The position numbers were made by a program, and so were the translations under genes. Below are positions 3,114 to 31,161 of a DNA stretch of 32,389 nt, in pieces (within the stretch, counting starts at the first letter, position 1; every line of letters starts with the position of its first letter). The stretch comes from Candidatus Huberarchaeum crystalense (GTDB taxonomy: Archaea > Huberarchaeota > Huberarchaeia > Huberarchaeales > Huberarchaeaceae). The notes beneath the pieces are model-generated. The model made no database searches and was not told the DNA's origin. It saw only the letters and a list, made by a program, of their open reading frames with translations. Location: the NCBI GenBank assembly GCA_002790315.1, contig PFUW01000020.1:1-32389 (forward strand), written 5' to 3'.

Positions 3114-3609
3114 TTTATTAATGATTTTTATTAGTTTCGTGCCTACAAACCTTAAGAAGTTTTTATTATAATACATATTTTATTTTATTATATTTGCTGT
3201 ATTTTTTGAATATTATTTCTTTTAGTAAAGATACTTAAAATCTCCTTGTTTTTTGCAGTTTTTCAGAATTAGTAAGCCACTTTTATTTTCAAAAAAAGTG
3301 CTAAAATCCCACAATCTACAAATAATTATTGCTGTTGCAAAATCATTAAATTTATAGTTCATTTGCCAACCATCCTTAGCTTTTTATTAATAAATATCTG
3401 GTTAATTGGGCTTTGTTCAGCCAGTTAAAAAATAAATTATAAGCATTCATATATCTAATTTGTTTGTGAAAACAAGTAATTACACACAAAACTAGGCGCG
3501 CGCTTTATTAAATTTATTGAAAAAATAAGTGTTAAAGTTAGTTAATAAAATATATCTAAAATAAATCATAGATAAAATTAAAATAGCCTGAATTTAGATT
3601 TGCTTTGAA

Positions 3610-3882
3610 TTAAAATATCTTTTCTTTAAGCTTTTGCTCATCAACTATAATATAATCGCCAACATTAATTATAGTATTATATGGGATTACACTTTTTCCA
3701 TTTTCTTTTTCCAAGTCTAAATTTATAGCATATGCGCTTTGGTTTGTTAATACTAATTTGATAAGTTCGCCTGTTTGCACAACAAAAATAATATTATCAA
3801 CATCACCTAATCTATATCCTTTGTTTGTGATAACTACTTTGTTAAATAGAGCCTTAGATTTTATTGGTTCATCTTTTGCCAT
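3610..3882 (-). CDS. PRC-barrel domain protein (archaeal CdpB-like cell division candidate)
   Basis: LFNKVVITNKGYRLGDVDNIIF...TGEL...IPYNTIINVGDYIIV is the PRC-barrel signature. Confidence 0.85.
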   Translation of the reverse strand: MAKDEPIKSKALFNKVVITNKGYRLGDVDNIIFVVQTGELIKLVLTNQSAYAINLDLEKENGKSVIPYNTIINVGDYIIVDEQKLKEKIF

Positions 3883-4044
3883 AATGTATTTAGTAAGATA
3901 TTTAAAAGAGGTTTAAAAAGAGCAATCTACAATAAAATATATCAATAATTGTATTTAACAAAACCAATACAAATTTCCTTTTAAACAAAATCTCTAAAAT
4001 AAAGTACTACACTAAATATATCTTGGTGGTAGGAGATTAAAACA

Positions 4045-4689
4045 ATGAAAATCGAACAAGCAATTGCGGAAATGAAAAAGAACGTAGGTAAGCGAAATTT
4101 TGTCCAAAGTTATGATGTTGTTTTTCTTTTGCAGAATATTGATGTTAAAAAGCCAGATCAACGTATAAAACTTGAAGTCATACTTCCTCATTCACCTTTT
4201 AAAAAACCGCACTCACTCGCAGTAATCGCAAAAACAACAACAAATCTAGGAAAAATATCTTATCAGCAGGGCTTAGATGTTATTGAGCCAATATATTTAG
4301 AAAGCATTGCACAAGACAAAAAAAAAATAAAGCACTTGGCTAATAAGTTTGATGCGTTTTTGTGCGATGTTGTAGAAGTAAGAACAATGGCGCGCATACT
4401 TGGTGCATTTTTAGGCCCTAAAAATAAAATGCCATTAATGGTTTCAGGAGCAGAAGCAAATCTTGCACAACATATTAAAAAAATAAGCAGAATCGTGCGA
4501 CTTTCAACAGGAATGCAAATGCAACTGCAAACTCTTTTTGGCTATGAAAAAATGGATGATTCACAGCTTATTGAAAATTTTAATGCAGTTGTAGCAGCTG
4601 TTCTCGCAAAACTACCAAAAGGCCGCACACAACTCAAAAAAGTGTTTATTAAACAAACAATGGCTGCGCCAGTAGCAGTGGAGATATAA
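4045..4689 (+). CDS. rpl1: 50S ribosomal protein uL1
   Basis: KRNFVQSYD, VILPH, LGAFLGPKNKMP, KLPKG, IKQTM; SD AGGAG. Confidence 0.95.
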   Translation: MKIEQAIAEMKKNVGKRNFVQSYDVVFLLQNIDVKKPDQRIKLEVILPHSPFKKPHSLAVIAKTTTNLGKISYQQGLDVIEPIYLESIAQDKKKIKHLANKFDAFLCDVVEVRTMARILGAFLGPKNKMPLMVSGAEANLAQHIKKISRIVRLSTGMQMQLQTLFGYEKMDDSQLIENFNAVVAAVLAKLPKGRTQLKKVFIKQTMAAPVAVEI

Positions 4690-6151: not shown

Positions 6152-6223
6152 TTTTAATTAATATCTCAACAACAAATTTGCGCGCATTTAACTTATCAAA
6201 CCCAAAACTTTAATATATATATT

Positions 6224-8145: not shown

Positions 8146-8958
8146 ATGGGCTTTTATCTTGATAAATCATTTTCAATTGATTTTGGTACAAAACTCGAAA
8201 GTGCGCGCAGCTTAATTCTTGGTGTTCCTTTTGATTCAACCACAACCGCAATTCCTGGTTCTCGACAAGCGCCTTTGCGAGTGCGAGAGGCATTTTTCCA
8301 AAAAGAAACTGCAAATTTAAATTTATATGATTTAGGAAATCTTGTTTGCGTGCCTGCAAATATCACAGAAACAGGAAAACGAGTTGAATATACTCTGCGC
8401 GAAATTAGAAAAAAATCCTCTTCGCCGATTTTTACTCTTGGTGGCGAGCATCTAATTACATATTGGACTACTAAAATTTTAGAGCCAGATATTTTGCTTG
8501 TTTTTGACGCGCACTTTGATCTGAAAGACCAAGTCAATGGTGAAAAATATACACACTGCACTTTTTTGCGTCGAATTATAGAAGAAACAAACATCAGAAT
8601 TATTGTGGTTGGGGGCCGCGCATTTGATGATGACGAAAAATTGTTTGTTGAAAAACACAAAGAACAATTAATTTTTACAAGTTCTTTTGAAAAAATTAAT
8701 GAAATTTGCAAAGATAAAAAAACATATATCTCTGTTGATGTTGATGTTTTTGATCCTGTATTTGCACCAGGAACAGGAACTCCTGAAAGCAATGGTTTGG
8801 ACACTCGTCAATTTTTTAATATTTTTGAAAATCTAAACATTGATTTGCTCGGCGGCGATGTGGTTGAGATAAATCCTTTACTTGATGACAAAGCAAACAG
8901 GACATCTGTTTTGGCTGCTGATGTTTTGTTTGAGTTGATTAAAAAGAGCCAAAAATAA
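8146..8958 (+). CDS. speB: Agmatinase (ureohydrolase family)
   Basis: GVPFD, GGEH, DAHFD, SVDVDVFDP..APGTGTPE, DVVEINP. Confidence 0.88.
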   Translation: MGFYLDKSFSIDFGTKLESARSLILGVPFDSTTTAIPGSRQAPLRVREAFFQKETANLNLYDLGNLVCVPANITETGKRVEYTLREIRKKSSSPIFTLGGEHLITYWTTKILEPDILLVFDAHFDLKDQVNGEKYTHCTFLRRIIEETNIRIIVVGGRAFDDDEKLFVEKHKEQLIFTSSFEKINEICKDKKTYISVDVDVFDPVFAPGTGTPESNGLDTRQFFNIFENLNIDLLGGDVVEINPLLDDKANRTSVLAADVLFELIKKSQK

Positions 8959-8959
8959 T

Positions 8960-9919
8960 ATGGTGCGCAAATTTTTCTGTTTTTTGCTTTTAATTCTTAC
9001 TTTTAGCAATATTTGTTATGCTGGTGTTTCTATTGATATTATTTCAGCACCTTTAAGTGCATCTGCTGGCGAAAATCTTCAAATTACAATTAATATTTAC
9101 AGCGATGTTTATGCTGAGGGACATCTATATTCTTATATCTATAAATATGATAAAACTAAAAATAAAACAATTTATGCTAACGAAAAAGGGTGGCAGGAAA
9201 ACAGATGTGGGTTTAGTATTAATGGAAGTGAGAAAAAAGTTTTAAAAAACAATATTATAGAAAATGTTGAACCAGGAGAATATATTTATCGAGTTAGGTT
9301 TAAAGAAAAAGTAGAAGATAAAACTAAAAACCACGATGCTGATATAAAGATAAATGTTGGTAATTATCCAGCACCAAAATCAACTTGTGAAGCAAAATTC
9401 ATTGGCGAAAAATACTGTAAATTGGACAATGTTTATCAAAAATACGAACAAAGCAATTGCAGTCAAATTGAAAAGAAAATTGAGACCTGTAACTTTGGCT
9501 GTAAAAATGGGGTTTGTAAGAGCAATACTTCAACATCTTTGGACGCAGATTTGAACAACACAACAAAAAGTGCGCGCAACTCAACCACAAACACAACAAC
9601 TTCGGCGAACAATACAGATTTAAATAAGAATAACAACACAACAAATAATAATGTAAGTAAGGGTGATGGTGTGAATAAAGACAATACAAGTAAGGGTGAT
9701 GGTGTGAATAAAGACAATATCTTAGAGCAGCAAAATATAGAACAAGATGACGCTCCTTATGAAAAAAGTCAAACTATAACAAGCAGAGGCATAACTAAGA
9801 ATACAGAATTACTTTCTTTATCTGCGATTTCAGGTATGTTTTCCCAAACTAGCAATCTTTCATTGCTTGGAATGGTTGTTGTTTTGGCTATTATTGGAAT
9901 AATTTTGTGGAAAATATAG
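8960..9919 (+). CDS. Cell-surface glycoprotein: signal peptide, Ig-like region, Cys-rich module, Asn/Thr-rich stalk, C-terminal TM anchor
   Basis: Hydrophobic N-terminus; CEAK..YC..C..CNFGCKNGVC; many N-x-S/T sequons; internal SKGDGVNKDN duplication; C-terminal LLGMVVVLAIIGIILWKI. Confidence 0.7.
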   Translation: MVRKFFCFLLLILTFSNICYAGVSIDIISAPLSASAGENLQITINIYSDVYAEGHLYSYIYKYDKTKNKTIYANEKGWQENRCGFSINGSEKKVLKNNIIENVEPGEYIYRVRFKEKVEDKTKNHDADIKINVGNYPAPKSTCEAKFIGEKYCKLDNVYQKYEQSNCSQIEKKIETCNFGCKNGVCKSNTSTSLDADLNNTTKSARNSTTNTTTSANNTDLNKNNNTTNNNVSKGDGVNKDNTSKGDGVNKDNILEQQNIEQDDAPYEKSQTITSRGITKNTELLSLSAISGMFSQTSNLSLLGMVVVLAIIGIILWKI

Positions 9920-10484: not shown

Positions 10485-11723
10485 ATGAGACACAAAATTT
10501 TGCTTTTAGGTTTGGCAATTTTAATACTTTTCACTCCTGTTTTTGCTGCTGATGAAGACTCTGTAAAATTTAATGCATATACTGGCAGCACTTTTGAAAA
10601 AAATCGCGCAATTTTCGATGTGTTTACCCAAGAGTCAGCGAGCGCATGCTTTTATATTTTGGATAATTTTTCTATCAAAGAAATTTCTGAAAAAATTAAT
10701 CAAACCAGATATAGGGTCGATTTAAAAAATTTAACAACAGGAAAACACAAAATATTGTTTACTTGTTATTTTAACAGCAAAAATTATTCAACAAACCCAT
10801 ATAATTTTGAAATATATCCTATTTTTTGCGGCGACGGAATTTGCAGTTCAGGAGAAACACCTCAAAGTTGTCCTGCTGATTGCGGCTCACCCTATCGCAA
10901 AATAGGAGATGTGTGCTATTCAGATGAGTCTTGCGAGAGCAAGCACTGTGTTCACGGATTTTGCAGAGAAAATAAATGGGCTGCGGGTGATGGTTTTTGC
11001 GATAAAAACATTGGCGAAAATTGCGAAAATAGCCCAAAAGATTGTGGTGTTTGTCCTAAAATTAAATATAGAATTTACTCTTCAACTATGTCTGTTCAAC
11101 CATTTTGCAAAGAAGAAAGTGTTTGTATTGATGTGAGCGAATTAAATGTAGAACTTATTATAGATAATAATATGTCTTATAGTATAAATAAATATAGTAT
11201 TTGTTTTAATGCGAGCGAAGGAAGTCATATTTTTACTCTAAAAAAAGAACAATTCTTGTCTATTTCTGATGTATTTAATGTAATTGAATGTGATAAAAAA
11301 ATTATTTTTGGATATTTATGCAGTAAATATGCTTGGCCACTTGTCGCGCTTTTTGCTTTGTTGTCAGCATTTATTGTTTGGATGCTTTTAAATCCACGCT
11401 TTTTTATGCCAAAGTATGAAAAAGGAGAAGGTGCGCGCGCCAACCTCCAACACTTTATTAACAGTGCATTAAGATCGCTTTCAGAAGAAGAAATTGTTAA
11501 TTTAGCGCGAGAAAAAGGATGGCAGATTAGTGATGTTGCGTCAGCAGTTAAAAATGTAGTTATGCAGCGTGATTTTAAACGATTTTTATTTGGCGGCGCT
11601 GTTTTTATTACACTTATTTTAATTGTTTTTTTGCTTGGTGTTTGCGATTTTTACTGGGTGCCTGCAGCTGTTTGTGTAGTTTCAGTAGCAACTTTGATTA
11701 AACAAAGAAGTCTTTATTTTTAA
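10485..11723 (+). CDS. Cys-rich repeat surface/membrane protein
   Basis: Signal peptide; CGDGICSSGETPQSCPADC and GDGFCDKNIGENCENSPKDC repeats; about 3 C-terminal TM segments. Confidence 0.75.
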   Translation: MRHKILLLGLAILILFTPVFAADEDSVKFNAYTGSTFEKNRAIFDVFTQESASACFYILDNFSIKEISEKINQTRYRVDLKNLTTGKHKILFTCYFNSKNYSTNPYNFEIYPIFCGDGICSSGETPQSCPADCGSPYRKIGDVCYSDESCESKHCVHGFCRENKWAAGDGFCDKNIGENCENSPKDCGVCPKIKYRIYSSTMSVQPFCKEESVCIDVSELNVELIIDNNMSYSINKYSICFNASEGSHIFTLKKEQFLSISDVFNVIECDKKIIFGYLCSKYAWPLVALFALLSAFIVWMLLNPRFFMPKYEKGEGARANLQHFINSALRSLSEEEIVNLAREKGWQISDVASAVKNVVMQRDFKRFLFGGAVFITLILIVFLLGVCDFYWVPAAVCVVSVATLIKQRSLYF

Positions 11724-11880: not shown

Positions 11881-12297
11881 ATGGCAACAATAAACAGAAA
11901 AGTTAGAAAAGCGCGCGGAAAGCGCGGAGGAAGGGGGCAAGGAAAAAAACAACGCGGAAAAGGAACGCAAGGTGGTTGTGGGTTGGCTGGTTTAAACAAA
12001 TGGAAACTTGGAACTACTTTAAAATATGCTCCTGATCATTTTGGAACATGGGGGGTTGCGCGCAGAACAAAACACATGTGTGGCATTAATCTTTATCAAA
12101 TAACCCAAAAACTAAAATATTTTGAGAATAAAAAAGCATTGGAAACCGAGGTACTTGATTTAACTTCTACAAAATATGACAAAGTTCTCAGTTTGGGGGA
12201 TGTTCCAAAAGGCATTAAAAAAATCATTACTCATGCTGTTTCAGATAAAGCAAAAACAAAGTTAAATGAAGCCGGCATTGAAGTTGTGATTGGGTAA
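11881..12297 (+). CDS. rpl15: 50S ribosomal protein uL15
   Basis: Gly/Arg-rich N-terminus (GTQGGCGLAG), INL, YDKVLSLG, SDKAKTKLNEAG; precedes secY. Confidence 0.92.
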   Translation: MATINRKVRKARGKRGGRGQGKKQRGKGTQGGCGLAGLNKWKLGTTLKYAPDHFGTWGVARRTKHMCGINLYQITQKLKYFENKKALETEVLDLTSTKYDKVLSLGDVPKGIKKIITHAVSDKAKTKLNEAGIEVVIG

Positions 12298-12301: not shown

Positions 12302-13630
12302 ATGTCTAATTTTCTTGCAACAATTATGCCGACTGTTAGCGCGCCAAAAGGAAAAACATCTTTGAAAGAGAAATTTATGTGGATTTTTATAGTTTGCGCA
12401 ATTTATGTAATTTTAGGAAGTATTCCTCTTATAGGCCTTGCAGAGGGAGTATATACTCAGTTTGAGCTTTTGCAAATCTTAACAGCATCAAGTATTGGGA
12501 CTATTTTAACTTTAGGTATTATTCCTATTATTGATGCGTCCATTCTTTTGCAGATTTTGTTAGGTATGAAGTTTATATCTATTGATGTTTCTACTTCTCA
12601 AGGAAAAGCACAATTAGGCGCACTTCAAAAAGTATTGGCAATATTTTTCGCGCTCGCATTTTCTTTAGTTTTTGTTGTTACTGGTATACTATCTCCTGCG
12701 CAAGGGATTCCGCAAGTTTTTTTATTTATTCAGATTTTTATGGGTGCAATCCTTGTAATTTTTCTTGACGAAATTATTACAAAATGGGGTTTTGGAAGTG
12801 GAATAGGTTGGTTTATTTTGCTGGGTGTGGCGCAAGAAGCTATATATAGGGGATTTAATATTTTTGAAGTTGTGGGTTTAAATCTTGGAGATGTTGTTAA
12901 ATATATTGGAAATCTGGTTGCAGGCAATATTGGCGAAATTGATTTGCTTTTTCCCATTATATTTACTTTGGTTATTTTCGCAGTTGTAAACTTTGCGCAG
13001 TTATTGCGAGTAGAAGTTCCGTTGTCATATAATCAATTTGCTAGCGGCCACAGCTGGAAATTAAAATTTATATATACAAGCAACATTCCTGTAATTTTTG
13101 CTTCAATTATTATAGCTGAAATGGGATTAGTATTTAATACAATAGCAAACCATTCAACAGATATTATTCAGCAAATATTTAGTGGACTTCACTGGTTTGT
13201 ATCTATCCCCCCATCTTTTATTACTCACGCACTGTCAGGTACAGCATCCACAACAATGTATATGCAATCTTTTTCTCATATTTTGTTATATGTGGTGTTA
13301 TCTGCTATGATGGCTTTGTTGTGGTTGGAAATGACTGCTGCAAGCACACCATCAGGAGTTGCATCTCAAATCCACAAAGCAGGAATGAGCATCGGAGGTT
13401 TTAGAAGAGATCCGCGCATTATTGAAGCGAGGTTGACAAATTACATACCTTATCTTGCTGCAATGGGTGGTGCTTTTGTTGGCTTGCTTGCTGCGTTTGC
13501 TAATTTAACTGGTGCATATGGCGGAGGTACAGGCATTTTGTTGGCAGTTATGATTGTTTTTCAGCTTTATGAATATCTTATCCATCAGCATGCAGAAGAA
13601 TTCCTTCCTTTGTTGCGGAAGAAGTTTTGA
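12302..13630 (+). CDS. secY: Preprotein translocase subunit SecY
   Basis: GTILTLGIIPII, LDEIITKWGFGSGI, KFIYTSNIPVI, GFRRDPRI, GGGTGILLAV. ATG 12302 preferred over TTG 12290. Confidence 0.95.
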   Translation: MSNFLATIMPTVSAPKGKTSLKEKFMWIFIVCAIYVILGSIPLIGLAEGVYTQFELLQILTASSIGTILTLGIIPIIDASILLQILLGMKFISIDVSTSQGKAQLGALQKVLAIFFALAFSLVFVVTGILSPAQGIPQVFLFIQIFMGAILVIFLDEIITKWGFGSGIGWFILLGVAQEAIYRGFNIFEVVGLNLGDVVKYIGNLVAGNIGEIDLLFPIIFTLVIFAVVNFAQLLRVEVPLSYNQFASGHSWKLKFIYTSNIPVIFASIIIAEMGLVFNTIANHSTDIIQQIFSGLHWFVSIPPSFITHALSGTASTTMYMQSFSHILLYVVLSAMMALLWLEMTAASTPSGVASQIHKAGMSIGGFRRDPRIIEARLTNYIPYLAAMGGAFVGLLAAFANLTGAYGGGTGILLAVMIVFQLYEYLIHQHAEEFLPLLRKKF

Positions 13631-13760
13631 AATTGTGGTTTGAAGACAAACTTAAAAAATAGTTTGTGTTGATATTACTGATGTGTTGATTTAATATGTC
13701 AAACTATTTTGAATTTGCATCAAAAGAAAAAAGAAAAAATACACAGCATCAACATAAACA

Positions 13761-13835
13761 TAGCGGGGAATGGACTTGAACCATTGACCTTCGGGTTATG
13801 GGCCCGACGAGCACTCCATGCTGCTCCACCCCGCT
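13761..13835 (-). tRNA. tRNA-iMet (CAT), initiator
   Basis: Cloverleaf AGCGGGG...CCCCGCT-A with an A1:U72 pair and three G-C pairs in the anticodon stem (TCGGG CCCATAA CCCGA). TTCAA T-loop. No CCA encoded. Confidence 0.95.
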
Positions 13836-13888
13836 TTTATTTAAATTGTTGTGCATCTTATAATTTTTTTATAATTTTTATAAAAATT

Positions 13889-14263
13889 ATGTGGCAATAT
13901 CAAAAAGGTGTGACTTTTGAAAGGCAATTATTCAAGCGATTTTGGGATTCTGGTTGGGCTGCTATGCGCGCAGCTGGTTCAGGAGACAAAAAAGTCCCTG
14001 ATATTATTGCAGGAAATGGAAAAAAGCTTATAATTGTAGAATGCAAAACAATTAACGACGACCATATTTATTTGAAAAAAGATGATGTTGAAAAGTTGAT
14101 TTTGTTTGGCTTGCGAATTAAAGCCTGGCCACTTATTTGTGTAAAGTTCAAGGGCAACCCTGAGATATTTTATGCAATTGAGGATTTGCAATATACCAAA
14201 AATAACTGCTGCAAACTTAGTGTCCAACAAAAAGGCCTTTCATTTGATGAGATAAACTATTAA
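13889..14263 (+). CDS. hjc: Holliday junction resolvase Hjc
   Basis: KGVTFERQL, RAAGSG, PDIIAGNG, VECK. True start 13889; the longer ORF overlaps the tRNA. Confidence 0.92.
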   Translation: MWQYQKGVTFERQLFKRFWDSGWAAMRAAGSGDKKVPDIIAGNGKKLIIVECKTINDDHIYLKKDDVEKLILFGLRIKAWPLICVKFKGNPEIFYAIEDLQYTKNNCCKLSVQQKGLSFDEINY

Positions 14264-14290: not shown

Positions 14291-15166
14291 ATGAAATCAT
14301 CACAAATATATGTTTTGTTACTGGTTTTTATAATTTTAGCAGGAAGTGCATATCTTTTCTTGATTTTAAATAACCAAGTTCAGCAAAAATCAACAGAACT
14401 AACAGGTCTGTCGATTATAAAAGCAGAATTAGAGAACACGTCTCGTTCTCTTGCCGCAGATATTTCAGACTGCAGGGCACAACTAACACACACCCAACAA
14501 GCGTACAAACAACTTTTACAATCCAAGCAAGCAAATTTTACAAATCCTTTATTTAAAGAGCTTGTTAGCTTTTTAGAAGCAGACAAGACAGAGAAAACAC
14601 AATACAATGAACAAACTTATGATTGCACAGGCTTTTCCTTAGATTTGTATAAGAACAGTCGCGCGCATGGTTTTAAATCAGGAATTGTTGAAATAGAATT
14701 TGCAGAAACCAACAACGCAGGCCATATGATAAATGTTTTCCAAACACATGACAAAGGAAGAGTATTTATTGATGTGGCTGGAACAAAAGAAGGAAAAGGT
14801 GAAGACAAAGTTGGGTATATTAAACCAGGAAAGCCATATGGAACCTTGCCTTTTGCGTCAATACTCAACACCACAACAGCAATAGATTGCAACACAACTT
14901 GCCGGGTTTTTGCAAAAGAAATAGATTATTTTGATTTGGATGTGTTTTCTTATGCTTTTTTTGAAAATACAAAACAATGCATAACTTTATACAACAATTG
15001 CAGCCGCATTTTTGCAATAGATTCATCAGAACGAGCAGAATACACTTCTGAAGAGCAAAACAAACTTTTCGCGCACCTACAAGAATTGTATGTTTATTTA
15101 GATAAAAAACACATATCTTATATTTCTAAAAATGTGACAGTGAAGAGTATCCAGATTTATTGGTAG
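14291..15166 (+). CDS. Membrane-anchored protein with coiled coil and transglutaminase-like/papain-fold Cys protease domain
   Basis: N-terminal TM and coiled coil, then YDCTGFS ... GHMIN ... FID giving a candidate Cys-His-Asp triad. Confidence 0.65.
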   Translation: MKSSQIYVLLLVFIILAGSAYLFLILNNQVQQKSTELTGLSIIKAELENTSRSLAADISDCRAQLTHTQQAYKQLLQSKQANFTNPLFKELVSFLEADKTEKTQYNEQTYDCTGFSLDLYKNSRAHGFKSGIVEIEFAETNNAGHMINVFQTHDKGRVFIDVAGTKEGKGEDKVGYIKPGKPYGTLPFASILNTTTAIDCNTTCRVFAKEIDYFDLDVFSYAFFENTKQCITLYNNCSRIFAIDSSERAEYTSEEQNKLFAHLQELYVYLDKKHISYISKNVTVKSIQIYW

Positions 15167-21875: not shown

Positions 21876-22001
21876 AAGATTTTTAATTTTTTGGTTTGTG
21901 TGTTAATAAAAAGATTATTCAGGAAAACAGTGGTCTATATGAAGGATTGCAATTCGCATAAGATTTTTAATTTTTTGGTTTGTGTGTTAATAAAAAGATT
22001 A
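21834..22001. repeat. 84-bp perfect tandem duplication covering the rli start and upstream region
   Basis: Identical units at 21834-21917 and 21918-22001. Confidence 0.92.
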
Positions 22002-22047
22002 TGGGCATCATTAAAAAAAGCAAGAGTTTGCGAACAGAGGGTTTGTT

Positions 22048-22467
22048 ATGGCTTTGATTCGTAAATTATTGAGGCAAAAAAAAGCGCAAAAATTGCAGAA
22101 AAAGCGATATGTACACAAATTAATTAAAAGAACAAAGAAAGGTATTGATCCTCTTGATGGCTCACCTCAGGCGCGCGCACTTGTTTTAGAAAAGCGAACA
22201 GTTGAGCAAAAGCAGCCCCACTCAGGTCTTATTCGCGTTGTTAGGACTCAGCTAATTAAAAGTGGTCGTCAAGTTACAGCATTTTTGCCGAGAGAAGGAG
22301 CTGAAAAACATATTGCAGAGCATGATATTGTAACAATTGAGAGTGTTCATGGCGCGCAAGGTGGAGCAAAGGGTGCTATTCCTGGGGTTAAGTATTTGGT
22401 TATAAAAGTTAATGGTGTTTCCCTTGAGCAAATTCGCCGCGGGAAAAAGCAAAAACCAATAAAGTAA
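22048..22467 (+). CDS. rps12: 30S ribosomal protein uS12
   Basis: DPLDGSPQARALVLEK, KQPHSG, VTAFLP, IPGVKY, KVNGVSL. Confidence 0.95.
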   Translation: MALIRKLLRQKKAQKLQKKRYVHKLIKRTKKGIDPLDGSPQARALVLEKRTVEQKQPHSGLIRVVRTQLIKSGRQVTAFLPREGAEKHIAEHDIVTIESVHGAQGGAKGAIPGVKYLVIKVNGVSLEQIRRGKKQKPIK

Positions 22468-22575: not shown

Positions 22576-23931
22576 ATGTTAGACATAAACCTATTCCGCG
22601 AATATCCTGAAATAATAATTGCAAGTGAAAAAAGAAGAAGCAAGGATTTGGGTTTTGTTGAAAAAACAATTGAATATGACAAACAATGGCGCGCAGCCTT
22701 GATTCAAGTCGAAAAATTGCGGCAAGAAGTTAACAAAAATTCTCACGAGCTTGCGACAGCATCTTCTGTTGAAAAAAAACAAAAATCAGAAAAGATGAAA
22801 GAGTTAAAGCAAAAAATCATAGATTTGGAAAAAAATGCTGATGAATATTTAAAATTGCGAGATGAGAACAGATATAGAGTAGCGAATTTGCTTGATGAAA
22901 GAGTGCCTGATGGAAAGTCAGATAAAGAGAATTTGCCTATTTCATTTTATGGAACACCATCTGTTTTCAAAGATGATTTGCCTGGTTTTTTAAAAGCAAC
23001 AAATGGAAAAATGACATATAAACGTATTGAAACGCGTTTGAAAAGCCATTCTGATTTGTTGGTTGATTTAGATATAGCAAATCTGAAAAAATCAGCAGGA
23101 ATAGCAGGTAGCCGCACATATTATTTAAAAAATGAACTTGTTTTCTTAAATATAGCTCTTTTGCAATTTGCATTGGAAAAAATGGTTTCAAAAGGATTTA
23201 CTCCAATGTGGCCTCCTTTTTGGTTGAACGAAAAAGCAATGAAAGCTGTTTCGCATTTTGGAAATTTTCAAGACAGTCTTTACAAATTCACAGACAATGA
23301 CAATGAAAACTTTTATTTTATTCCGTCGAGCGAACAACCAATGATAGCTTATTTTTATAATGAAATTATTAGGAAAAAGGATTTGCCTTTTTTATGCGCA
23401 GGAATTTCAACAAATTTTAGGCGCGAGGCAAGCGCGCACGGCAAAGATGAAGGAGGGATTTTTCGCGTGCATCAGTTTGATAAAATTGAGCAAATTGTGG
23501 TTTGTGCTCCAGAAGACTCTGAAAAATGGCATCAAGAAATACTTAAAAATGGAGAAGAAATTTTAAAAGATCTTGGTTTGGCTTACAGGGTTATAAATTG
23601 CTGTTCTGGAGATATTGGTGATATGAATGTCCTTCAATATGATATTGAAGTTTGGATGCCATCACAAGGAAAATTTCGAGAAACGCACTCAGTGTCAAAT
23701 TTAAAAGACTACCAGGCGCGCAGGGCAGGTATTCGCTACAAAGAGCCAGATGGAACTACTGTTTTTGCTCACACACTTAATGCAACGAGCTTAGCAACCG
23801 AGCGCGTGATTGTTGCAATTTTAGAAAATTTTCAAAGAAAAGAAGGAACAGTTGAAATTCCAAAAGTGCTGCATAAATATTTACCATTTGGAATAACTGA
23901 AATTAAGCTATTAAAGCCATGGAAAGAGTGA
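22576..23931 (+). CDS. serS: Serine--tRNA ligase (standard type)
   Basis: MLDINLFR, N-terminal coiled coil, FRREA, GIFRVHQFDKIEQ, YDIEVWMPSQ, DYQARR, HTLNAT. Confidence 0.96.
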   Translation: MLDINLFREYPEIIIASEKRRSKDLGFVEKTIEYDKQWRAALIQVEKLRQEVNKNSHELATASSVEKKQKSEKMKELKQKIIDLEKNADEYLKLRDENRYRVANLLDERVPDGKSDKENLPISFYGTPSVFKDDLPGFLKATNGKMTYKRIETRLKSHSDLLVDLDIANLKKSAGIAGSRTYYLKNELVFLNIALLQFALEKMVSKGFTPMWPPFWLNEKAMKAVSHFGNFQDSLYKFTDNDNENFYFIPSSEQPMIAYFYNEIIRKKDLPFLCAGISTNFRREASAHGKDEGGIFRVHQFDKIEQIVVCAPEDSEKWHQEILKNGEEILKDLGLAYRVINCCSGDIGDMNVLQYDIEVWMPSQGKFRETHSVSNLKDYQARRAGIRYKEPDGTTVFAHTLNATSLATERVIVAILENFQRKEGTVEIPKVLHKYLPFGITEIKLLKPWKE

Positions 23932-24282: not shown

Positions 24283-24356
24283 TGGGGTCGCCAGGATTTG
24301 AACCCAGATCGCCAGCTCCCTAAGCTGGTATGCTAGCCAAGTTACACTACAACCCC
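24283..24356 (-). tRNA. tRNA-Pro (AGG)
   Basis: GGGGTTG/CGACCCC-A acceptor; anticodon arm CCAGC-TTAGGGA-GCTGG with G37; CTGGG-TTCAAAT-CCTGG T-arm. Confidence 0.92.
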
Positions 24357-24392
24357 AAATTTAACTATTTCTTAAAATGTTTTAAAAAAGAT

Positions 24393-26321
24393 ATGATTGA
24401 TAAAATAGATGAAAAAACAAAAGGAACAGATGAATATAATGCTGAGAGCATTAAGATTTTAGAAGATGCAGACGCAGTGCGAAAACGACCAGGAATGTAT
24501 ATTGGCTCAACTGGTGAAACCGGGATGTATCATCTTATTGTTGAAATTATAGATAATGCAATTGACGAGAGTTTGGCAGGATATTGTAGTAGCATTGCTG
24601 TTACGCTTTTTCAAGATGACACAATATGCATAGAAGATGATGGAAGAGGCATTCCTGTTGCAACACATTCCACAGGAAAATCAGCATTAGAACTTGCAGC
24701 AACAAAGTTGCATGCTGGCGGAAAATTTGATCAAAAGAGCTACAAAATTTCAGGCGGGCTTCATGGCGTGGGATTGAGTGTTGTAAATGCTCTCAGCGAT
24801 TTGTTAACTATTGATGTGTTTTGTGATGGATCTCAATGGCAGCAAACATATTCAAAAGGCAAAGCAACAAATGAGGTAAAAAAAATAGAAGCAAGCGAAA
24901 AACACGGAACGCGAGTAACATTTAAACCTGACTTTTCAATTTTTAATGACGAAGGCCAGCCCCTTAAATATAATGGTGAAAAAATTGCTGAAATTTTACA
25001 AGAAAAAGCATATTTAAATAGCTGTGTAAAAATTACTTTTGAAGATAAAAAATCAAACAAAACCCATATATTTGAAAATAAAGGGGGGTTGGTAGAGTAT
25101 TTGAAAGCCATTACAAAAAATAAAACCCTTATTATTGACAAGCCATTTATTATAAACTTCCAGAGTGACAAAATATCGATAAATATTGCATTTACTTACG
25201 CAACAGGATATAGTGACAATATTTTATCCTATGTTAATAACATTAGAACAGGCGAAGGCGGAACACATGTAACTGGTTTTTTGATAGGTCTTGGCCGCGC
25301 GATTTCAAAATATTTTGGGGGCAAGCAAACAAAGGGTTTTGATATAGTTGATCGTGAGGACACAAAACCAGGACTTTCTGCAATCATTTCTGTTAACTTT
25401 GCAGAGCCGCAATTTGAAGGACAAACAAAAGCAAAAATGAATGTGTCTTGGGTTCGAGGAGTAGTAGATAAAGCTACAAGTGACGCAGTTTATATTTTTT
25501 TAGATGGAAACCCAGAACTTTCAAAACAACTTTTTGCGAAATTTAAGCAAACTGCAGAGAGTCGCATTGCTGCTGAAAAGGCAAGGGATTTAGTAAGGCG
25601 AAAAGGTGAGCTAGACATAATTTCAGGACTTCCTGGAAAGTTAGCTGATTGCTCTGGGCGCGACATAGAAAAAACAGAACTTTTTATTGTAGAAGGAGAT
25701 AGTGCTGGGGGTTCAAGTAAGCAGGGCCGCGATAGAAAAACCCAAGCAATATTGCCATTGCGCGGAAAAATTCTAAACATTGAAAAAGCAGGCATAGAAA
25801 AAATGCTTAATAGCGAAGTCATTACCCCCCTTATCGCTGCTCTCGGAACAAATATAGATGATAAGTTTGATATTAGTAAATTACGCTACGGCAAAATTAT
25901 AATGATGGCTGATGCTGATGTTGATGGTTCGCACATTCAAACTTTACTTCTTACTTTATTTTTCCGTCATTTCAAGCCACTGATTGAGCAGAATCGCATT
26001 TATAGTGCTGTTCCTCCATTATATAAAGTTTATAAAGGAAATAAAGAAGAGTATGCATATTCTGACGAAGAACGCAACAGATTATTGCAGATATTTGGGG
26101 GCGACGCAAATGTGCAAAGATATAAAGGTCTTGGAGAAATGAATCCTGATCAACTTGGAGAAACAACTCTAAATCCTGAAACGCGAATATTAAAAAGAAT
26201 TACAATCGAAGATGCAGAAGCAGCAGATAAATTGTTCACTTTGTTGATGGGAAGCGAAGTTGAACCAAGAAGAAAGTTTATTGAGAAGTATGCGCGCGAG
26301 GTTAAGAATATTGATGCTTAG
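24393..26321 (+). CDS. gyrB: DNA gyrase subunit B (type IIA topoisomerase B subunit)
   Basis: AVRKRPGMYIG, EIIDNAIDE, DDGRGIP, SGGLHGVG, EGDSAGG, PLRGK, DADVDGSHI, QRYKGLGEMN. True start 24393; the longer ORF overlaps tRNA-Pro. Confidence 0.93.
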   Translation: MIDKIDEKTKGTDEYNAESIKILEDADAVRKRPGMYIGSTGETGMYHLIVEIIDNAIDESLAGYCSSIAVTLFQDDTICIEDDGRGIPVATHSTGKSALELAATKLHAGGKFDQKSYKISGGLHGVGLSVVNALSDLLTIDVFCDGSQWQQTYSKGKATNEVKKIEASEKHGTRVTFKPDFSIFNDEGQPLKYNGEKIAEILQEKAYLNSCVKITFEDKKSNKTHIFENKGGLVEYLKAITKNKTLIIDKPFIINFQSDKISINIAFTYATGYSDNILSYVNNIRTGEGGTHVTGFLIGLGRAISKYFGGKQTKGFDIVDREDTKPGLSAIISVNFAEPQFEGQTKAKMNVSWVRGVVDKATSDAVYIFLDGNPELSKQLFAKFKQTAESRIAAEKARDLVRRKGELDIISGLPGKLADCSGRDIEKTELFIVEGDSAGGSSKQGRDRKTQAILPLRGKILNIEKAGIEKMLNSEVITPLIAALGTNIDDKFDISKLRYGKIIMMADADVDGSHIQTLLLTLFFRHFKPLIEQNRIYSAVPPLYKVYKGNKEEYAYSDEERNRLLQIFGGDANVQRYKGLGEMNPDQLGETTLNPETRILKRITIEDAEAADKLFTLLMGSEVEPRRKFIEKYAREVKNIDA

Positions 26322-26498: not shown

Positions 26499-27494
26499 AT
26501 GAACTCTCATTCTGAATTTGCTGAAAGATCTTCACCACAAATAGAAAGCTTGTCCCAGATAGTTTATGAAAAAAACTTTTCTCAACTTACTTCGCCAGTA
26601 GCTATTGCGATATTTTTAGCAAGTGTTGCTTTTTTTATTGGTTTTATTTATTTGCTTATTATTGGTAGTGATAATTTTGGATTGTATTTTATTCTTCTTT
26701 TGCTTTCTATTCCTGGTTTTTTTTTGGGTTTTGTTCGACAATACGGTCCCACAGAAAAGGCAGTAATTTATAGATTTGGCAATTTTTGCAGAACAATAGG
26801 TCCGGGTTGGGCAATTTTGCTTCCATTTATTGAAAATGAATATGCTATTGTTGATACGCGAGTTCATCAACAAACAAAATACAAAGTTATTGCTTATACA
26901 AAAGACGATGTGCCTATTGAATTTGATTTTGCTTATTATGTTCGGGTTGTTGATGCAAGCAAAGCAGTAATGAATGTAAACAACATAGAGCGCGCAATTT
27001 CAACATATATTTTTGGAAATGTGCGAGGAGTTGTTGGAAAAATTTTGATGCGCGAGATGTTTTCAGATATGGATAGTTTAGAAAATCTTTTAAAACCAGA
27101 ATTAGAAAAACACAGTTTAAGGTGGGGATTTGATGTTGAGAATGTTGAGATTTTGCATATTTCTCTTCCAAAGACAGTTTTTCAAGCACTTTCTGAGCCA
27201 ATCACTCAAGAGCAAAAAGCCATAGCTGCGCGCTTTGAAGCAGAAGCAAAGAGAGTTATAATAAATGTAGTTGGTGACTCTGCTAAAAATTTAAGCCCCC
27301 AAGCACTTACTTATATTTATATCCAAGCACTGAACAAATTAGGTCAGCAAGCTGGTTCTAAGATTGTTATACCAACAGATTATTCTTCAATGATGAATCT
27401 TGCGACAAATGCGTCTCTTGCTGCAGAAGCGATTGGTGGAAAAGCCAACCTAAAAAAAATAATATCTGATGTAGCAGACAATATTAAATGTTAA
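26499..27494 (+). CDS. SPFH/Band 7 (stomatin-like) membrane protein
   Basis: Two TMs, EKAVIYRFG, GPGWAILLPFIE, TKDDV, RGVVG, WGFDVENVEI. Confidence 0.9.
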   Translation: MNSHSEFAERSSPQIESLSQIVYEKNFSQLTSPVAIAIFLASVAFFIGFIYLLIIGSDNFGLYFILLLLSIPGFFLGFVRQYGPTEKAVIYRFGNFCRTIGPGWAILLPFIENEYAIVDTRVHQQTKYKVIAYTKDDVPIEFDFAYYVRVVDASKAVMNVNNIERAISTYIFGNVRGVVGKILMREMFSDMDSLENLLKPELEKHSLRWGFDVENVEILHISLPKTVFQALSEPITQEQKAIAARFEAEAKRVIINVVGDSAKNLSPQALTYIYIQALNKLGQQAGSKIVIPTDYSSMMNLATNASLAAEAIGGKANLKKIISDVADNIKC

Positions 27495-27662: not shown

Positions 27663-27777
27663 CTGAATTAACCTGCTTTTAAATGCAAATGCTTTTTTTC
27701 ACGCCAAATTTTTCTAAAATGCGTTTGCGCGCCCAACAATAAGCAACAATAAGCTCTTGCATACTTTCAAAAATCTT

Positions 27778-29649
27778 ATGCTTAAGTTTAATCTTTTTCC
27801 ATTTGAGAAAATACGTAGTGGCCAAGCTGAATTTATGAATGATGTTGCTGCTGCAATTGAAAATAGAAAAATCTTGTTAAGCCATGCGCCAACAGGAATT
27901 GGAAAAACAGTTTCAGCTTTGGTTCCTGCTGTTGAATATGCGTTGAAAAATGATAAAATTGTTTTCTTTTTGACATCAAAGCAATCTCAACACAAGATTG
28001 TAATTGAGACTTTGAAAAAAATGAGTAATATATCTGACTCTAAAATAAAAGTTGTTGACCTTATTTCAAAACAAGCAATGTGTCCGCGCGAAATTGCTGC
28101 TGAGCATCCTGCTCTTTTTTCAGATTTTTGTCGCCTTGATCAAAAAACAGGAAGATGTAAATATTTTATCAATAATAATAATCAATTTAAAGAAAAAATA
28201 AACAGCGAAATTTTGCATGTTGAAGAATTTAAAAAACTATGCTCAAACGAGTGGGTTTGCCCCCATAAATGTGCATTAGAATTAATATCTACAGCAAATG
28301 TTGTTGTTTGTGATTATAATTATTTATTTACAGACATATATGATAATTTTTCAGACAAGATAGGAAAATCATTGAGTGATTTTATTGTTATTATTGATGA
28401 AGCGCACAACCTTTCAAACCGCCTTGTTGATTATCTTAGCGGCGAACTTAATGTTGATATTTTAGATGGAGCAAGAAAAGAGGCACAAAAAATAGACAGA
28501 AAGGACTTGAGCCAAATTATAAAAAAATTGATTGGTTTTTTTGAAAGTCAGCCAAAAAATAAAGAAGTCAATGTATTACTTGGATTTTTAATTGACAAAC
28601 TCAATAATATTTTGAAAGAATCTCTAAATCCAATAGGTTTTGATGATTTTTTTGAAGAGCTTAAAAAAGCAGCTGATGAGGTGTTTGAACAAAAGGTTGC
28701 AGAAGAGTATTCAAAACTGAATTTTTTGAAAACTTTTTTAGAAGGGTGGAAAACTAACTCTCCTTGCTCTCGAATTTTTTCGTTTGTTGATTCACCTAAA
28801 CTTTCATACAAACTTTTAGATCCTTCTTCATTAAGTAACACAGTTTTATCAAAAGTTCATTCTGCAATCTTGATGAGCGGAACATTTTCACCTCCAGAAA
28901 TGTACGCAGACGTCTTAGGTATTTCAAATGAGCGCGCAATTTTTAAAATTTACCCTTCTTATTTTCCTCAAGAAAATCGCTTTGTCGCAGTGACAAAAAA
29001 TCTAACAAGTTTGTATTCTTATAGGAGCAAAGACATGTTCTATGCAATAGCTGAAAAAATTACAAATATTTCTAAAATTATTATTGAAAAAACAGGACAG
29101 AATATAGCTGTTTTTTTCCCCTCATATTTATTTTTAAATGAGGTGCAGCAATATATTGATGACAAACTAAAATCAAAACTAATTGTTGAGTTGAGGCATA
29201 TGCGCAAAACAGACAAAGAGAATTTATATAATCAGCTAAAATTTTTTCCAGGCAAAATTTTGTTTGGGGTAATTGCTGGTTCGCTTTCAGAAGGATTTGA
29301 CTATGAAAACAACTTACTGAAATGTGTTATAGTAGTTGGTTTGCCGTTAAATCCGCCAGATCTTTTTAGGAAAAATTTTCAAGAATATTATTGCAAAAAA
29401 TTTGGTAAGCGAAAAGGCATACTTTACAGCAACACATATCCTGCGATAAATAAAGCAGTGCAAGCAGGTGGGCGCGCAATTCGCAGCGAAACCGACCGTG
29501 CAATTATTGTGTTGATGGATTATAGATATATTTTTCCTGAGTATATGCAATGCCTTCCCCCAGAATGGAATGCAAGGTCAAGCGATAAAATTGAAGATCT
29601 TTGTGAAAAGTTTTTTGATAAAAATAATAGCTACAACAAAGAAAATTAA
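27778..29649 (+). CDS. xpd: XPD/Rad3/DinG-family FeS DNA helicase
   Basis: Q motif RSGQ, APTGIGKT, four FeS Cys, DYNY, DEAHN, MSGT, FFPSY, SEGFD, QAGGRAIRS. ATG at 27778. Confidence 0.92.
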   Translation: MLKFNLFPFEKIRSGQAEFMNDVAAAIENRKILLSHAPTGIGKTVSALVPAVEYALKNDKIVFFLTSKQSQHKIVIETLKKMSNISDSKIKVVDLISKQAMCPREIAAEHPALFSDFCRLDQKTGRCKYFINNNNQFKEKINSEILHVEEFKKLCSNEWVCPHKCALELISTANVVVCDYNYLFTDIYDNFSDKIGKSLSDFIVIIDEAHNLSNRLVDYLSGELNVDILDGARKEAQKIDRKDLSQIIKKLIGFFESQPKNKEVNVLLGFLIDKLNNILKESLNPIGFDDFFEELKKAADEVFEQKVAEEYSKLNFLKTFLEGWKTNSPCSRIFSFVDSPKLSYKLLDPSSLSNTVLSKVHSAILMSGTFSPPEMYADVLGISNERAIFKIYPSYFPQENRFVAVTKNLTSLYSYRSKDMFYAIAEKITNISKIIIEKTGQNIAVFFPSYLFLNEVQQYIDDKLKSKLIVELRHMRKTDKENLYNQLKFFPGKILFGVIAGSLSEGFDYENNLLKCVIVVGLPLNPPDLFRKNFQEYYCKKFGKRKGILYSNTYPAINKAVQAGGRAIRSETDRAIIVLMDYRYIFPEYMQCLPPEWNARSSDKIEDLCEKFFDKNNSYNKEN

Positions 29650-29712
29650 AGATGTTTGTTGTGGAGTTTTTGGCAAAAACAGCAATCAAAAAAAGTTAAA
29701 TTTAGATTAAGC

Positions 29713-31161
29713 TTACGCTAAATTAAATTTATTCTTAAAAACAGCCATTATTTTATCAATTTGCTCTTGAAGTTTTTTTTGCTCTGCTACATATTCTGTT
29801 TTTGGCACTATTGCTTTTTTGTGAAGCAATACACATTTTTTTAAATTTTCATTTGATTTATATTCAGGAGTTTTTTTGTTTTCACCTTCTTCACTTTTTC
29901 TATCTTTTGATGGTTTGCCTTCAAAAAGACGATCAAGCAATCGCAATCCACCTTCGTCGCTTTTTGGCTTTTCTTCAACTTTTTCATCAGGAAGTTTAAA
30001 ATCTAAACCAAGTTCACGCGCTAATTTTGCGACTTCTTCAAGTTCAGCTATGTCATTTGTTCCTGCTACTCCTTCAATATAATCATCTATCTCTTTTTTT
30101 AGGGAAGTGTCTTCAATAGAACGTTGCTGCAAGCAACATTCCCAGGGAGTTAATAAATAACCTGTTGCATTAATTTGAAAATACCAATTATTGGCACCTG
30201 TTGCTTCAACTCCAACAAAATTAAAAATCCAATATTTTTTTAATACTGGCTTAATTTCTTTTTTGAGCTCAAAACTCCAACTAAGACCACTACTTAACTT
30301 TACAGTTGTCATCCTAACAGGCACTCCTGCAAGCATATTTACTGCAACGTCAGAATCCATACTAGCATATACAGATGCAGGATCACCACTCATAAATTCA
30401 AGTCTTTTAATATTTTCAAGTACAGGCCGCAATTGTTTTTTATATAAAACAATCATTGATAGGTCGCGCGCAAGCTGCTCTATTGCTATTTTTTCTGTAA
30501 GTTTAAGATTTTCTTTCCAATATTTTCGCCATTCTAAAAATTCAGTTAATTTTTTTGCCAAAATATTTTTATATCTATCACTAAGTGTTGTGTCTTTTTG
30601 AATTTCTTCAACTGTTTCTGTTTTGATAAAATAGTCAGGAAGCATATAAAATGAAAGATCCTGTGCCATTTGATATATGCTTGATCTTCCTTTTTTTATA
30701 TCTACATTGTCAAGCCAAAGCGATTTTTGTATGCGTATTGTTTCCTTTTGTTTTTCAGGGTCTTTTGTATTTTCACTATCTTTTATAATATCTAGAAATT
30801 TTTTTGTTTCAATGCGATCTGCCATTGATTGATTGATTGCTTTGGTTGAAATACCAATTGCTTGCAAAAGTTGACTTGCTTGTTGCTGCTGGCTTGCTTT
30901 TTTTTGTTGAATTTCACCCCAACGAGTATCTATTTCTGAAGCATACCACTGCTCATCAAGCTTTCTTAAATNNNNNNNNNNNNNNNGCGGCTTAATTGGT
31001 CGTAGTTTGTAGTGTTTTGGGTCTAAGGCTTTGCTTATTGAAGTATAAGCAAATTTTCCTTTTTTCACAGTTTCTCCTTTTGATTTAAATTTTTCTTTGT
31101 ATTTTTCAACATATGCTGCTTGTTCTACACCTTCTAATTCTACAAATGTCTTACCACTCAT
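29713..31161 (-). CDS. Hypothetical helical/coiled-coil protein (spans N-gap)
   Basis: 482-aa ORF, charged and helical; WLDNVDIKKGR segment looks like a conserved motif. Continuity across the gap at 30972-30986 is not certain. Confidence 0.7.
   Translation of the reverse strand: MSGKTFVELEGVEQAAYVEKYKEKFKSKGETVKKGKFAYTSISKALDPKHYKLRPIKPXXXXXXLRKLDEQWYASEIDTRWGEIQQKKASQQQQASQLLQAIGISTKAINQSMADRIETKKFLDIIKDSENTKDPEKQKETIRIQKSLWLDNVDIKKGRSSIYQMAQDLSFYMLPDYFIKTETVEEIQKDTTLSDRYKNILAKKLTEFLEWRKYWKENLKLTEKIAIEQLARDLSMIVLYKKQLRPVLENIKRLEFMSGDPASVYASMDSDVAVNMLAGVPVRMTTVKLSSGLSWSFELKKEIKPVLKKYWIFNFVGVEATGANNWYFQINATGYLLTPWECCLQQRSIEDTSLKKEIDDYIEGVAGTNDIAELEEVAKLARELGLDFKLPDEKVEEKPKSDEGGLRLLDRLFEGKPSKDRKSEEGENKKTPEYKSNENLKKCVLLHKKAIVPKTEYVAEQKKLQEQIDKIMAVFKNKFNLA

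Follow-up and report, generated by a model that had tools for sequence, protein, structure and literature searches.

GCGCGC is a highly iterated palindrome of the native DNA of the archaeon Candidatus Huberarchaeum crystalense

The closest described counterpart of the motif considered here is HIP1 (GCGATCGC), a highly iterated palindrome (HIP) of cyanobacteria. HIP1 is reported to be over-represented 15- to 300-fold and conserved, its function being debated (PMC5861425), and it occurs at 300–2700 copies per Mb (PMC4390886). The alternative cyanobacterial HIPs GGCGCC, GCsGC and rCCGGy are found together with methyltransferases of matching specificity. In Elhai's proposal a ratchet driven by methyl-directed mismatch repair is at work, which predicts saturation with spacing, and the same author notes that a GCGC methyltransferase is missing from every cyanobacterium studied (PMC4390886). 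Selection and a role in the nucleoid have also been argued for (PMC5861425), and a recent proposal casts HIP1 as a recognition sequence for DNA uptake (PMC13756078). Thirty years on, its function and accumulation are still disputed between repair ratchet, nucleoid structure and DNA uptake (PMC4390886, PMC5861425, PMC13756078). Here we describe the hexamer GCGCGC in a stretch of 32,389 nucleotides from the archaeon Candidatus Huberarchaeum crystalense (GenBank assembly GCA_002790315.1, contig PFUW01000020.1; hereafter the window) and in the genome to which it belongs, and find it to be a true HIP-type motif of the native DNA of this archaeon. Literature searches, with the papers' supplementary files outside their scope, returned no archaeal HIP and no archaeal GCGCGC excess.

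The genome (G000 in our collection) is an assembly of 453,293 bp in 42 contigs, 31.5% G+C and 77.85% complete, the longest contig being 42.8 kb; we put its full size at under about 0.6 Mb, with ~22% unassembled. GCGCGC occurs at 509 sites (442 separate loci) on 37 of the 42 contigs, where 6.9 would be expected from base composition and 18.2 from a first-order Markov model, an excess of 74-fold (73.9) and 28-fold (28.0), respectively. The density is 1123 sites per Mb, with 1.17 matches per kb of native DNA and 1.0 loci per kb. By observed-to-expected ratio (O/E) GCGCGC ranks top among all hexamers against the first-order Markov model and first of the 64 palindromic hexamers against base composition; the next palindromic hexamer outside G/C runs is TTGCAA, at an O/E of 2.95. 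The maximal-order Markov O/E (1.05 for GCGCGC) was dropped as a test because the motif itself dominates the sub-words from which that expectation is built.

In the window, which is contig C27 of the assembly, the first-pass annotation had listed 29 GCGCGC loci by eye, and all 29 are present (Table 1). They comprise 32 overlapping matches, the extra three (3498, 11435 and 22173) arising from GCGCGCGC runs. When the window was shuffled 100 times with its dinucleotides preserved, the mean count was 1.47 matches (standard deviation 1.20, largest 5), and no shuffle reached 32. Twenty-five loci lie inside open reading frames (ORFs), 12 in phase 0 (always Ala-Arg), six in phase 1 and seven in phase 2, and four lie between ORFs, position 17169 being added to the three intergenic loci already named. 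The same annotation had proposed that the motif is genome-wide and that protein sequence does not explain it. Both proposals hold across the assembly, where the excess extends well beyond the window and persists under nulls that preserve amino acids, codon usage or dinucleotides. With a gene set of 383 crude ORF-based calls covering 72.7% of the DNA, the sites divide into 396 coding (136, 106 and 154 in the three phases) and 113 non-coding. When synonymous codons were permuted within each gene, keeping both proteins and codon usage, 45.2 ± 6.2 copies remained (largest of 200 permutations, 66), compared with 397 observed, and permutation of whole codons left 19.0 against the same 397 in ORFs. 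Strictly intergenic DNA, taken as that outside all six-frame stop-to-stop frames of at least 60 codons (32.5 kb, 24.8% G+C), holds 24 sites versus 0.12 expected, an excess of about 200-fold; with a 40-codon limit the figures are nine sites and 0.03. Codon and composition effects are thus refuted as the cause by the synonymous-shuffle null and the strict intergenic excess, and a genome-wide, sequence-specific force acting at the level of DNA favors exact GCGCGC in native DNA.

What this force recognizes can be seen from a completion test confined to synonymous third positions, in which the other bases of a word are held fixed and the same codon families elsewhere provide the baseline. With five bases of the hexamer fixed, the sixth completes it in 75/88, 74/82, 66/76, 89/94, 74/86 and 67/80 cases for positions 1–6, a total of 445/506 (88%) and a range of 84–95%, against baselines of 8–41% (odds ratios 7–74). 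Completion of an isolated GCGC is near neutral (32/123, 122/477, 141/587 and 36/247; total 331/1434 versus ~19% expected). For this tetramer the completion test replaces the first-order Markov expectation (410 versus 439), which is misleading because its sub-words are dominated by the motif. Extension of the hexamer by one base to a 7-mer is unfavored (2/40 and 4/76), formation of the octamer, which is two overlapping hexamers, is favored, and extension from eight to nine bases is not seen (0/16 and 0/25). Maximal alternating G/C runs of lengths 4–9 number 621, 387, 346, 73, 65 and 4, and none is longer. Among maximal runs GCGCGC occurs 300 times versus 46 for CGCGCG, which is 6.5 times rarer, and GCGCGCGC 63 times versus 2 for CGCGCGCG. 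Other G/C-only palindromes stand at their expectation of 6.9 each: GGCGCC 7, GCCGGC 8, CCGCGG 10, GGGCCC 6, CCCGGG 8 and CGGCCG 9. The bases flanking GCGCGC are close to background, with a mild preference for T at −1 and for A at +1, and the hexamer is therefore no part of a longer repeat element. The directional force targets the exact 6-bp duplex word, rather than GCGC, longer alternating runs or other G/C-only palindromes, and it is equal at all six positions and in all reading phases, and acts on non-coding DNA as well.

These results bear directly on the idea that no specific reader exists and that the excess simply follows from composition, from the usage of codons or dipeptides, from slippage at dinucleotides or from alternation prone to form Z-DNA. 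GC is an over-represented dinucleotide (rho 1.66) and CGC supplies 25% of Arg codons, as such an origin would have it, but the idea is scarcely credible given the survival of the excess under dinucleotide, codon and amino-acid nulls, its size in intergenic DNA, the relative rarity of CGCGCG, the disfavor shown to 7-mers and 9-mers and the absence of any run of 10 bases. Alternating G-C runs of at least 6 are, moreover, generally suppressed in prokaryotes (PMC4060949).

Occupancy is close to half where proteins permit the word. GCGCGC is present in 397 of 868 protein-compatible contexts (46%; 33 expected), comprising 137/273 Ala-Arg, 154/265 x-Arg-Ala and 106/330 [CSRG]-Ala-[LPHQR] contexts. 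The Ala codon GCG is used in 8% of cases in neutral context and in 91% ahead of CGC. The force has also raised the frequencies of the dipeptides themselves, Ala-Arg standing at an O/E of 1.39 and Arg-Ala at 1.63. Taken as a balance of mutation with selection or conversion, the log odds ratios of about 2–4 would correspond to a scaled coefficient of about 2–4 per base, which is modest and pervasive rather than extreme and would be comparable to biased gene conversion or to selection of the strength seen in codon bias. Sites are evenly spread along genes, with 44, 46, 34, 31, 30, 47, 28, 42, 54 and 41 in successive deciles.

The first-pass annotation further held that the motif marks long-resident DNA and is missing from a cassette region at the start of the window. 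We measured compositional distance by tetranucleotides relative to the large contigs, leaving GCGC and CGCG out of the measure. Five of the 42 contigs (C1, C17, C24, C31 and C42) are free of the motif, and for each of them, as for window positions 1–3490, the distance reaches at least the 98th percentile, the window segment standing at the 99.75th percentile relative to native fragments of the same size. No GCGCGC occurs in window positions 1–3495. Compositionally foreign DNA (the five contigs and window positions 1–3044, 16.7 kb in all) contains no locus where 16.9 would be expected (P = 4.5e-8). The cassette region is thus motif-free and compositionally atypical, and it is set off from the remainder of the window by a run of N at 3045–3064; given this N run, it represents a mobile element or else a join made in scaffolding. 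Its three ORFs have no Pfam match and no PHROG match. The force has not acted on compositionally foreign DNA, and in this lineage GCGCGC can serve in practice as a sharp marker separating native from foreign or mis-binned DNA.

Sites also influence one another. The coefficient of variation (CV) of spacing between loci is 0.86, versus 0.99 for random placement, and only 0.15% of 2000 simulations gave a value as low; gaps below 100 bp number 21, versus 38.9 ± 5.6 under random placement. The gaps are more even than random because neighboring sites interfere. Among pairs of compatible contexts 7–25 bp apart, both members are occupied in 0/32 cases, where independence predicts 7.4; the corresponding figures are 3/55 (11.7 expected) at 25–50 bp, 15/104 (21.1) at 50–100 bp, 28/202 (42.4) at 100–200 bp and 62/316 (65.4) at 200–400 bp. 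In the whole genome only five site pairs lie 7–50 bp apart. A nearby copy within about 100–200 bp weakens the force. At the shortest range this could in part reflect selection against hairpins with 6-bp G/C stems; the tail to ~200 bp points to a short-range action of each site, with diminishing returns from a second one.

Such a short reach would suit a methylation-independent role, in which some protein binds the bare hexamer as a nucleoid or chromosome organizer, as a loading site or, in the manner of Chi, as a 'self' mark at which a nuclease is halted; each site would give a small gain in fitness, with diminishing returns nearby. The first-pass annotation had likewise named protein binding as an alternative. 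We consider this role possible though doubtful, and place it a close second among the readings weighed here. The exact word, the equal drive at six positions, the flat flanks, the uniform distribution along genes, the under-dispersed spacing with interference to ~200 bp, the lack of sites in foreign DNA and the lack of a cognate methyltransferase among the genes found all speak for it, as does the selection and nucleoid role argued for HIP1 (PMC5861425). Near-saturation and mutual exclusion of neighbors, in particular, would be explained if this deep-branching lineage with small genomes had a bare-hexamer 'self' code with a reach of ~100–200 bp per site, a version that we advance only tentatively. 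On the other side, no reader was found, the Z-alpha domain (PF02295) being absent from the matches in this genome and in archaeal family f9 (described below), and a contiguous 6-bp palindrome without flanks would be unusual for a structural DNA-binding protein.

The spacing bears as well on a biased drive through DNA uptake or recombination, by which the word would spread without benefit at each site. A density of ~1 per kb, drive at all positions, altered protein composition, spacing more even than random and the proposal that HIP1 is an uptake sequence (PMC13756078) would all be compatible with this. It is nevertheless unlikely: the ComEC family (PF03772) was found in 0/5 genomes searched, including this one (the search for uptake systems being confined to this family), six base pairs confer little specificity, and the interference range (at most ~200 bp) is below typical recombination tracts. 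We know of no competence system in this lineage.

The range of interference is also of the order of a gyrase footprint. Type IIA topoisomerases cut with a 4-base stagger, and gyrase wraps ~140 bp of DNA. It may be conjectured that the sites serve strong cleavage or binding by the bacterial-type DNA gyrase of this organism, cleavage as G^CGCG^C fitting a type IIA topoisomerase and the wrap accounting for the interference; a gyrB gene is present in the window. This is improbable: across the order that contains G008, none of 13 genomes gave a gyrase B (PF00204) match, including the three genomes of family f9 with an excess of GCGC runs.

The first-pass annotation had suggested drive by methylation or repair, and the search for methyltransferase and Vsr-like genes that it called for leads to contig C1 (L001:1–2190, minus strand). 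This contig carries a helix-turn-helix controller-like ORF (1811–2005), a C5 methyltransferase (816–1814; PF00145, E 2e-72) whose N-terminal half (residues 7–205) resembles M.HhaI (E 2e-49) and a nuclease (71–823) that resembles R.HinP1I over its whole length (E 1e-79). R.HinP1I cuts GCGC. At the contig edge are the first ~22 codons of a Vsr-like ORF, ended by the contig end, which match PF03852 positions 1–20 below the cut-off (E 0.099). A GCGC-type C5 methyltransferase with a Vsr-like gene start is binned with the genome, in keeping with the suggestion, but its specificity is wrong for the hexamer and the pattern expected of Vsr is absent. C1 is the strongest compositional outlier in the assembly (distance 0.722, beyond all 400 null fragments) and holds no GCGCGC. 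Its nuclease has 5427 homologues at E ≤ 1e-20, with 90–96% identical copies on short contigs of many metagenomes; the named near-identical copies are from Patescibacteria, and among 300 other archaeal genomes there are only two weak matches.

Methylation of GCGC by the C1 enzyme combined with very-short-patch repair by the adjacent Vsr-like gene would be expected to drive only the methylated C and to deplete T variants. Because this pattern is absent, we regard the scheme as highly improbable in spite of the gene content of C1. GTGC is not depleted (O/E 0.94), and GTGCGC, with 229 copies versus 127 for GAGCGC and 92 for GGGCGC, is the most frequent position-2 variant of GCGCGC. All six positions are driven, even against transversion alternatives, and interference at a distance is unexpected from repair confined to the site. 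The foreign-type nuclease, the outlier status of C1, the lack of preference for GCGC and the undepleted T variants together make the cassette an unlikely main driver; it is probably not the GCGCGC reader, and the likely origin of C1 is a promiscuous mobile element or else an error of binning.

We rank first, at a probability of roughly 0.35, a methylation-linked ratchet that works through a DNA-modifying enzyme specific for the hexamer. A contiguous, flank-independent 6-bp palindrome is recognized in the style of type II restriction–modification, and a hexamer-specific enzyme is therefore the most likely reader; the force would come from a protein that recognizes the hexamer in the way type II enzymes do. 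GCGCGC-specific 5-methylcytosine type II systems occur in Neisseria meningitidis (PMC7973814), so enzymes of exactly this specificity exist. The reader would be a putative cytosine methyltransferase of the BssHII kind, with its gene in the unassembled part of the genome or with the protein coming from outside the cell; a DPANN archaeon has been described that apparently exports a methyltransferase to its host (PMC11001535). Its mark might be used at short range, for discrimination of strand or self in repair or recombination, such that new sites would be kept and lost sites restored, as in a ratchet of the Elhai type, with diminishing returns from a second nearby site. The excess under the nulls, the exact unit, the near-background flanks, the degree of occupancy, the interference and the restriction to native DNA count in favor of this reading.

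Several observations weigh against this methylation-linked ratchet. The assembly yielded no cytosine DNA methyltransferase on its native contigs (absence from a 78%-complete bin being no proof of absence): PF00145 occurs only on the outlier C1, PF01555 only on the outlier C42, and PF02384 has no match in the genome. Native contigs encode a single DNA methyltransferase, a Dam-type (adenine) enzyme on C19. MutS was not found in the genome, and NucS has only a sub-threshold match (E 0.0099). The C42 enzyme (L002:2–1721), a 5′-truncated PF01555 methyltransferase on a motif-free contig, was considered as an N4-cytosine methyltransferase for GCGCGC and rejected, since its nearest solved relatives (MboIIA, RsrI and EcoP15I Mod) are adenine methyltransferases and the next ORF has a P-loop, as judged by eye; from its sequence the pair looks like a fragment of a type III restriction–modification system. 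Finally, an excess above 10-fold was found in just one other lineage, archaeal family f9 (G008, G241 and G161, small genomes in two genera; samples L019 and L031–L050), whose genomes share it without PF00145 (0/3), one of them being 98% complete. Weak PF01555 matches in f9 proved to be RNA methyltransferases of the RlmKL/UPF0020 type, with no homologue in G000. The f9 bias is, however, weaker and seems to be based on GCGC units, scaling with their number (GCGC completion 41% versus 22%, hexamer completion 62% versus 27%), and it may be a different phenomenon from the hexamer bias described here. The probability not assigned to the readings above is left to others not considered.

Comparisons with other archaea are limited by the isolation of this lineage, G000 being the sole member of its phylum in the genome collection surveyed. 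Its ABCE1 reaches at best 48% identity in 300 other archaeal genomes; an 80%-identical ABCE1 is known as a protein record ('MAG: Euryarchaeota archaeon HGW-Euryarch...'), and a search of genome contigs for the loci of such relatives returned only bacterial ABC ATPases. Metagenome loci L013–L015 derive from the same population (99.6–99.8% identity) and show few single-nucleotide polymorphisms, none within GCGCGC. In the survey of 300 archaeal genomes, none combined this density with a GCGCGC/CGCGCG ratio of at least 2. Thirteen survey genomes were corrected for G+C from samples, and only G008 exceeded 10-fold, at an O/E of 11.5 over 283 kb (38% G+C). The remaining 12 fell at 0.2–3.5, and candidates in families f29, f37, f10, f53 and f81, with ratios of at least 2, were rejected on this ground. 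In samples L064–L065 of G079 (43% G+C), synonymous completion of GCGCGC is 17/23 versus a baseline of 0.19, with an O/E of only 3.3, and this genome may be a mild case of the bias. The opposite is seen in genus g24 of family f24, where nine of 10 genomes (1.3–1.8 Mb) have zero GCGCGC and CGCGCG counts are 0–5, as would be expected under a BssHII-type restriction enzyme. In G000 itself some palindromic hexamers lie far below base composition, namely TCCGGA (1 versus 32.6), TACGTA (6 versus 154), CGTACG (2 versus 32.6), AACGTT (18 versus 154) and GGATCC, GGTACC and GACGTC (4 each versus 32.6), a deficit that may stem from avoidance of restriction or from depleted CG and TA dinucleotides.

The gene content of the window is archaeal housekeeping: ribosomal protein L1, L10/P0 with an insertion domain, SUI1, SecY, Hjc, ABCE1/RLI, ribosomal protein S12, three aminoacyl-tRNA synthetases, an XPD-like helicase and GyrB. 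The gyrB gene (24330–26321) is of bacterial type, in a small archaeal genome, and the Hjc-family resolvase (13709–14263) has an N-terminal extension of ~70 residues ahead of the Hjc domain. Ten unexplained ORFs of the window gave no match in a PHROGs search. Two tandem repeats are present. An 84-bp unit (2.1 copies, 98% identity) at 21830–22002, just upstream of the ribosomal protein S12 gene, is also found in metagenome loci L013 and L014, and an exact 33-bp duplication (2.0 copies) at 9655–9719 gives an in-frame 11-residue repeat within ORF 8960–9919, which has no Pfam match.

Table 1. GCGCGC loci and the motif-free block of the window (positions in the 32,389-nt stretch).
Feature	Position	Context
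Motif-free, compositionally atypical block	1–3044	three ORFs (394–1293, 1569–2114, 2107–2667), all − strand
GCGCGCGC (two overlapping GCGCGC)	3496–3503	between ORFs
GCGCGC	4390–4395	ribosomal protein L1 gene, phase 0 (Ala-Arg)
GCGCGC	6180–6185	between ORFs (SUI1 gene / next ORF)
GCGCGC	8203–8208	arginase-family gene, phase 0 (Ala-Arg)
GCGCGC	9572–9577	ORF 8960–9919, phase 0 (Ala-Arg)
GCGCGCGC	11433–11440	ORF 10485–11723, phase 0 (Ala-Arg-Ala)
GCGCGC (run GCGCGCG)	11911–11916	L15/L18e-family gene, phase 0
GCGCGC	12058–12063	L15/L18e-family gene, phase 0
GCGCGC	12339–12344	secY, phase 1 (Ser-Ala-Pro)
GCGCGC	13966–13971	Hjc-family gene, phase 2 (Met-Arg-Ala)
GCGCGC (run CGCGCGC)	14661–14666	ORF 14291–15166, phase 1
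GCGCGC	15601–15606	arginyl-tRNA synthetase gene (− strand), phase 2
GCGCGC	16653–16658	arginyl-tRNA synthetase gene (− strand), phase 0
GCGCGC	17169–17174	between ORFs
GCGCGC	19936–19941	HD-domain ORF (− strand), phase 1
GCGCGC	20315–20320	ABCE1/RLI gene (− strand), phase 1
GCGCGC	21256–21261	ABCE1/RLI gene (− strand), phase 2
GCGCGCGC	22171–22178	ribosomal protein S12 gene, phase 0
GCGCGC	22352–22357	ribosomal protein S12 gene, phase 1
GCGCGC	22689–22694	seryl-tRNA synthetase gene, phase 2
GCGCGC	23432–23437	seryl-tRNA synthetase gene, phase 1
GCGCGC	23716–23721	seryl-tRNA synthetase gene, phase 0
GCGCGC (run GCGCGCG)	26292–26297	gyrB, phase 0
GCGCGC	26990–26995	SPFH/Band 7 gene, phase 2
GCGCGC	27228–27233	SPFH/Band 7 gene, phase 0
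GCGCGC	27727–27732	between ORFs, upstream of XPD-like helicase gene
GCGCGC	28932–28937	XPD-like helicase gene, phase 2
GCGCGC	29472–29477	XPD-like helicase gene, phase 2
GCGCGC (run CGCGCGC)	30466–30471	ORF 29713–31161 (− strand), phase 0

This genome offers an independent and simpler case of a HIP, with a 6-bp word, a small AT-rich genome and a strong intergenic signal. It provides two quantitative handles, (i) the rate of synonymous completion and (ii) the interference between close neighbors, and for both of these, site-confined repair and distance-acting signals lead to different predictions. Were the sites to prove unmethylated, HIPs would not be linked to methyltransferases in every case. 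If the bare-hexamer reading were true, no genome-wide word of this kind would have been described in Archaea before GCGCGC, and the case would set HIP-type motifs apart from methyltransferases.

The comparison with known systems can be made at four levels. The uptake sequences USS of Pasteurellaceae and DUS of Neisseriaceae are 9–12 bp long, non-palindromic and dependent on a competence apparatus. GCGCGC is like them in its frequency, in being placed where proteins tolerate it, in altering peptide composition and in its even spacing, and unlike them in its length, its palindromic symmetry and the lack of ComEC among the families found. In Dcm/Vsr very-short-patch repair of Escherichia coli, CCWGG is enriched and CTWGG depleted. 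A C5 methyltransferase beside a Vsr-like gene start is binned with the present genome too, but here the enriched word is not the methyltransferase site (GCGC 331/1434 versus hexamer 445/506), T variants are undepleted, every position is driven and the cassette looks foreign. Sites for an active restriction enzyme are usually scarce in the genome that carries it. Restriction–modification of the BssHII type, as in the 5-methylcytosine GCGCGC system of N. meningitidis (PMC7973814), shares the identical 6-bp recognition word with this genome and differs in that the word is enriched 74-fold here and that no gene for such an enzyme was found.

The remaining comparison is with HIP1 and its relatives. 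The motif differs from HIP1 in being a 6-mer of other sequence in an archaeon at 31% G+C and, whereas HIPs usually have a cognate methyltransferase (PMC4390886), none was found on the native contigs of the 77.85%-complete assembly. Like HIP1, it is a short G+C-rich palindrome in tens-fold excess, found in all coding phases and in non-coding DNA, absent from foreign DNA and spaced more regularly than random. As a HIP should be, it is the top over-represented word of its genome, at a density within 0.3–2.7 per kb and an O/E of at least 15, and it is not driven by the peptides that it encodes.

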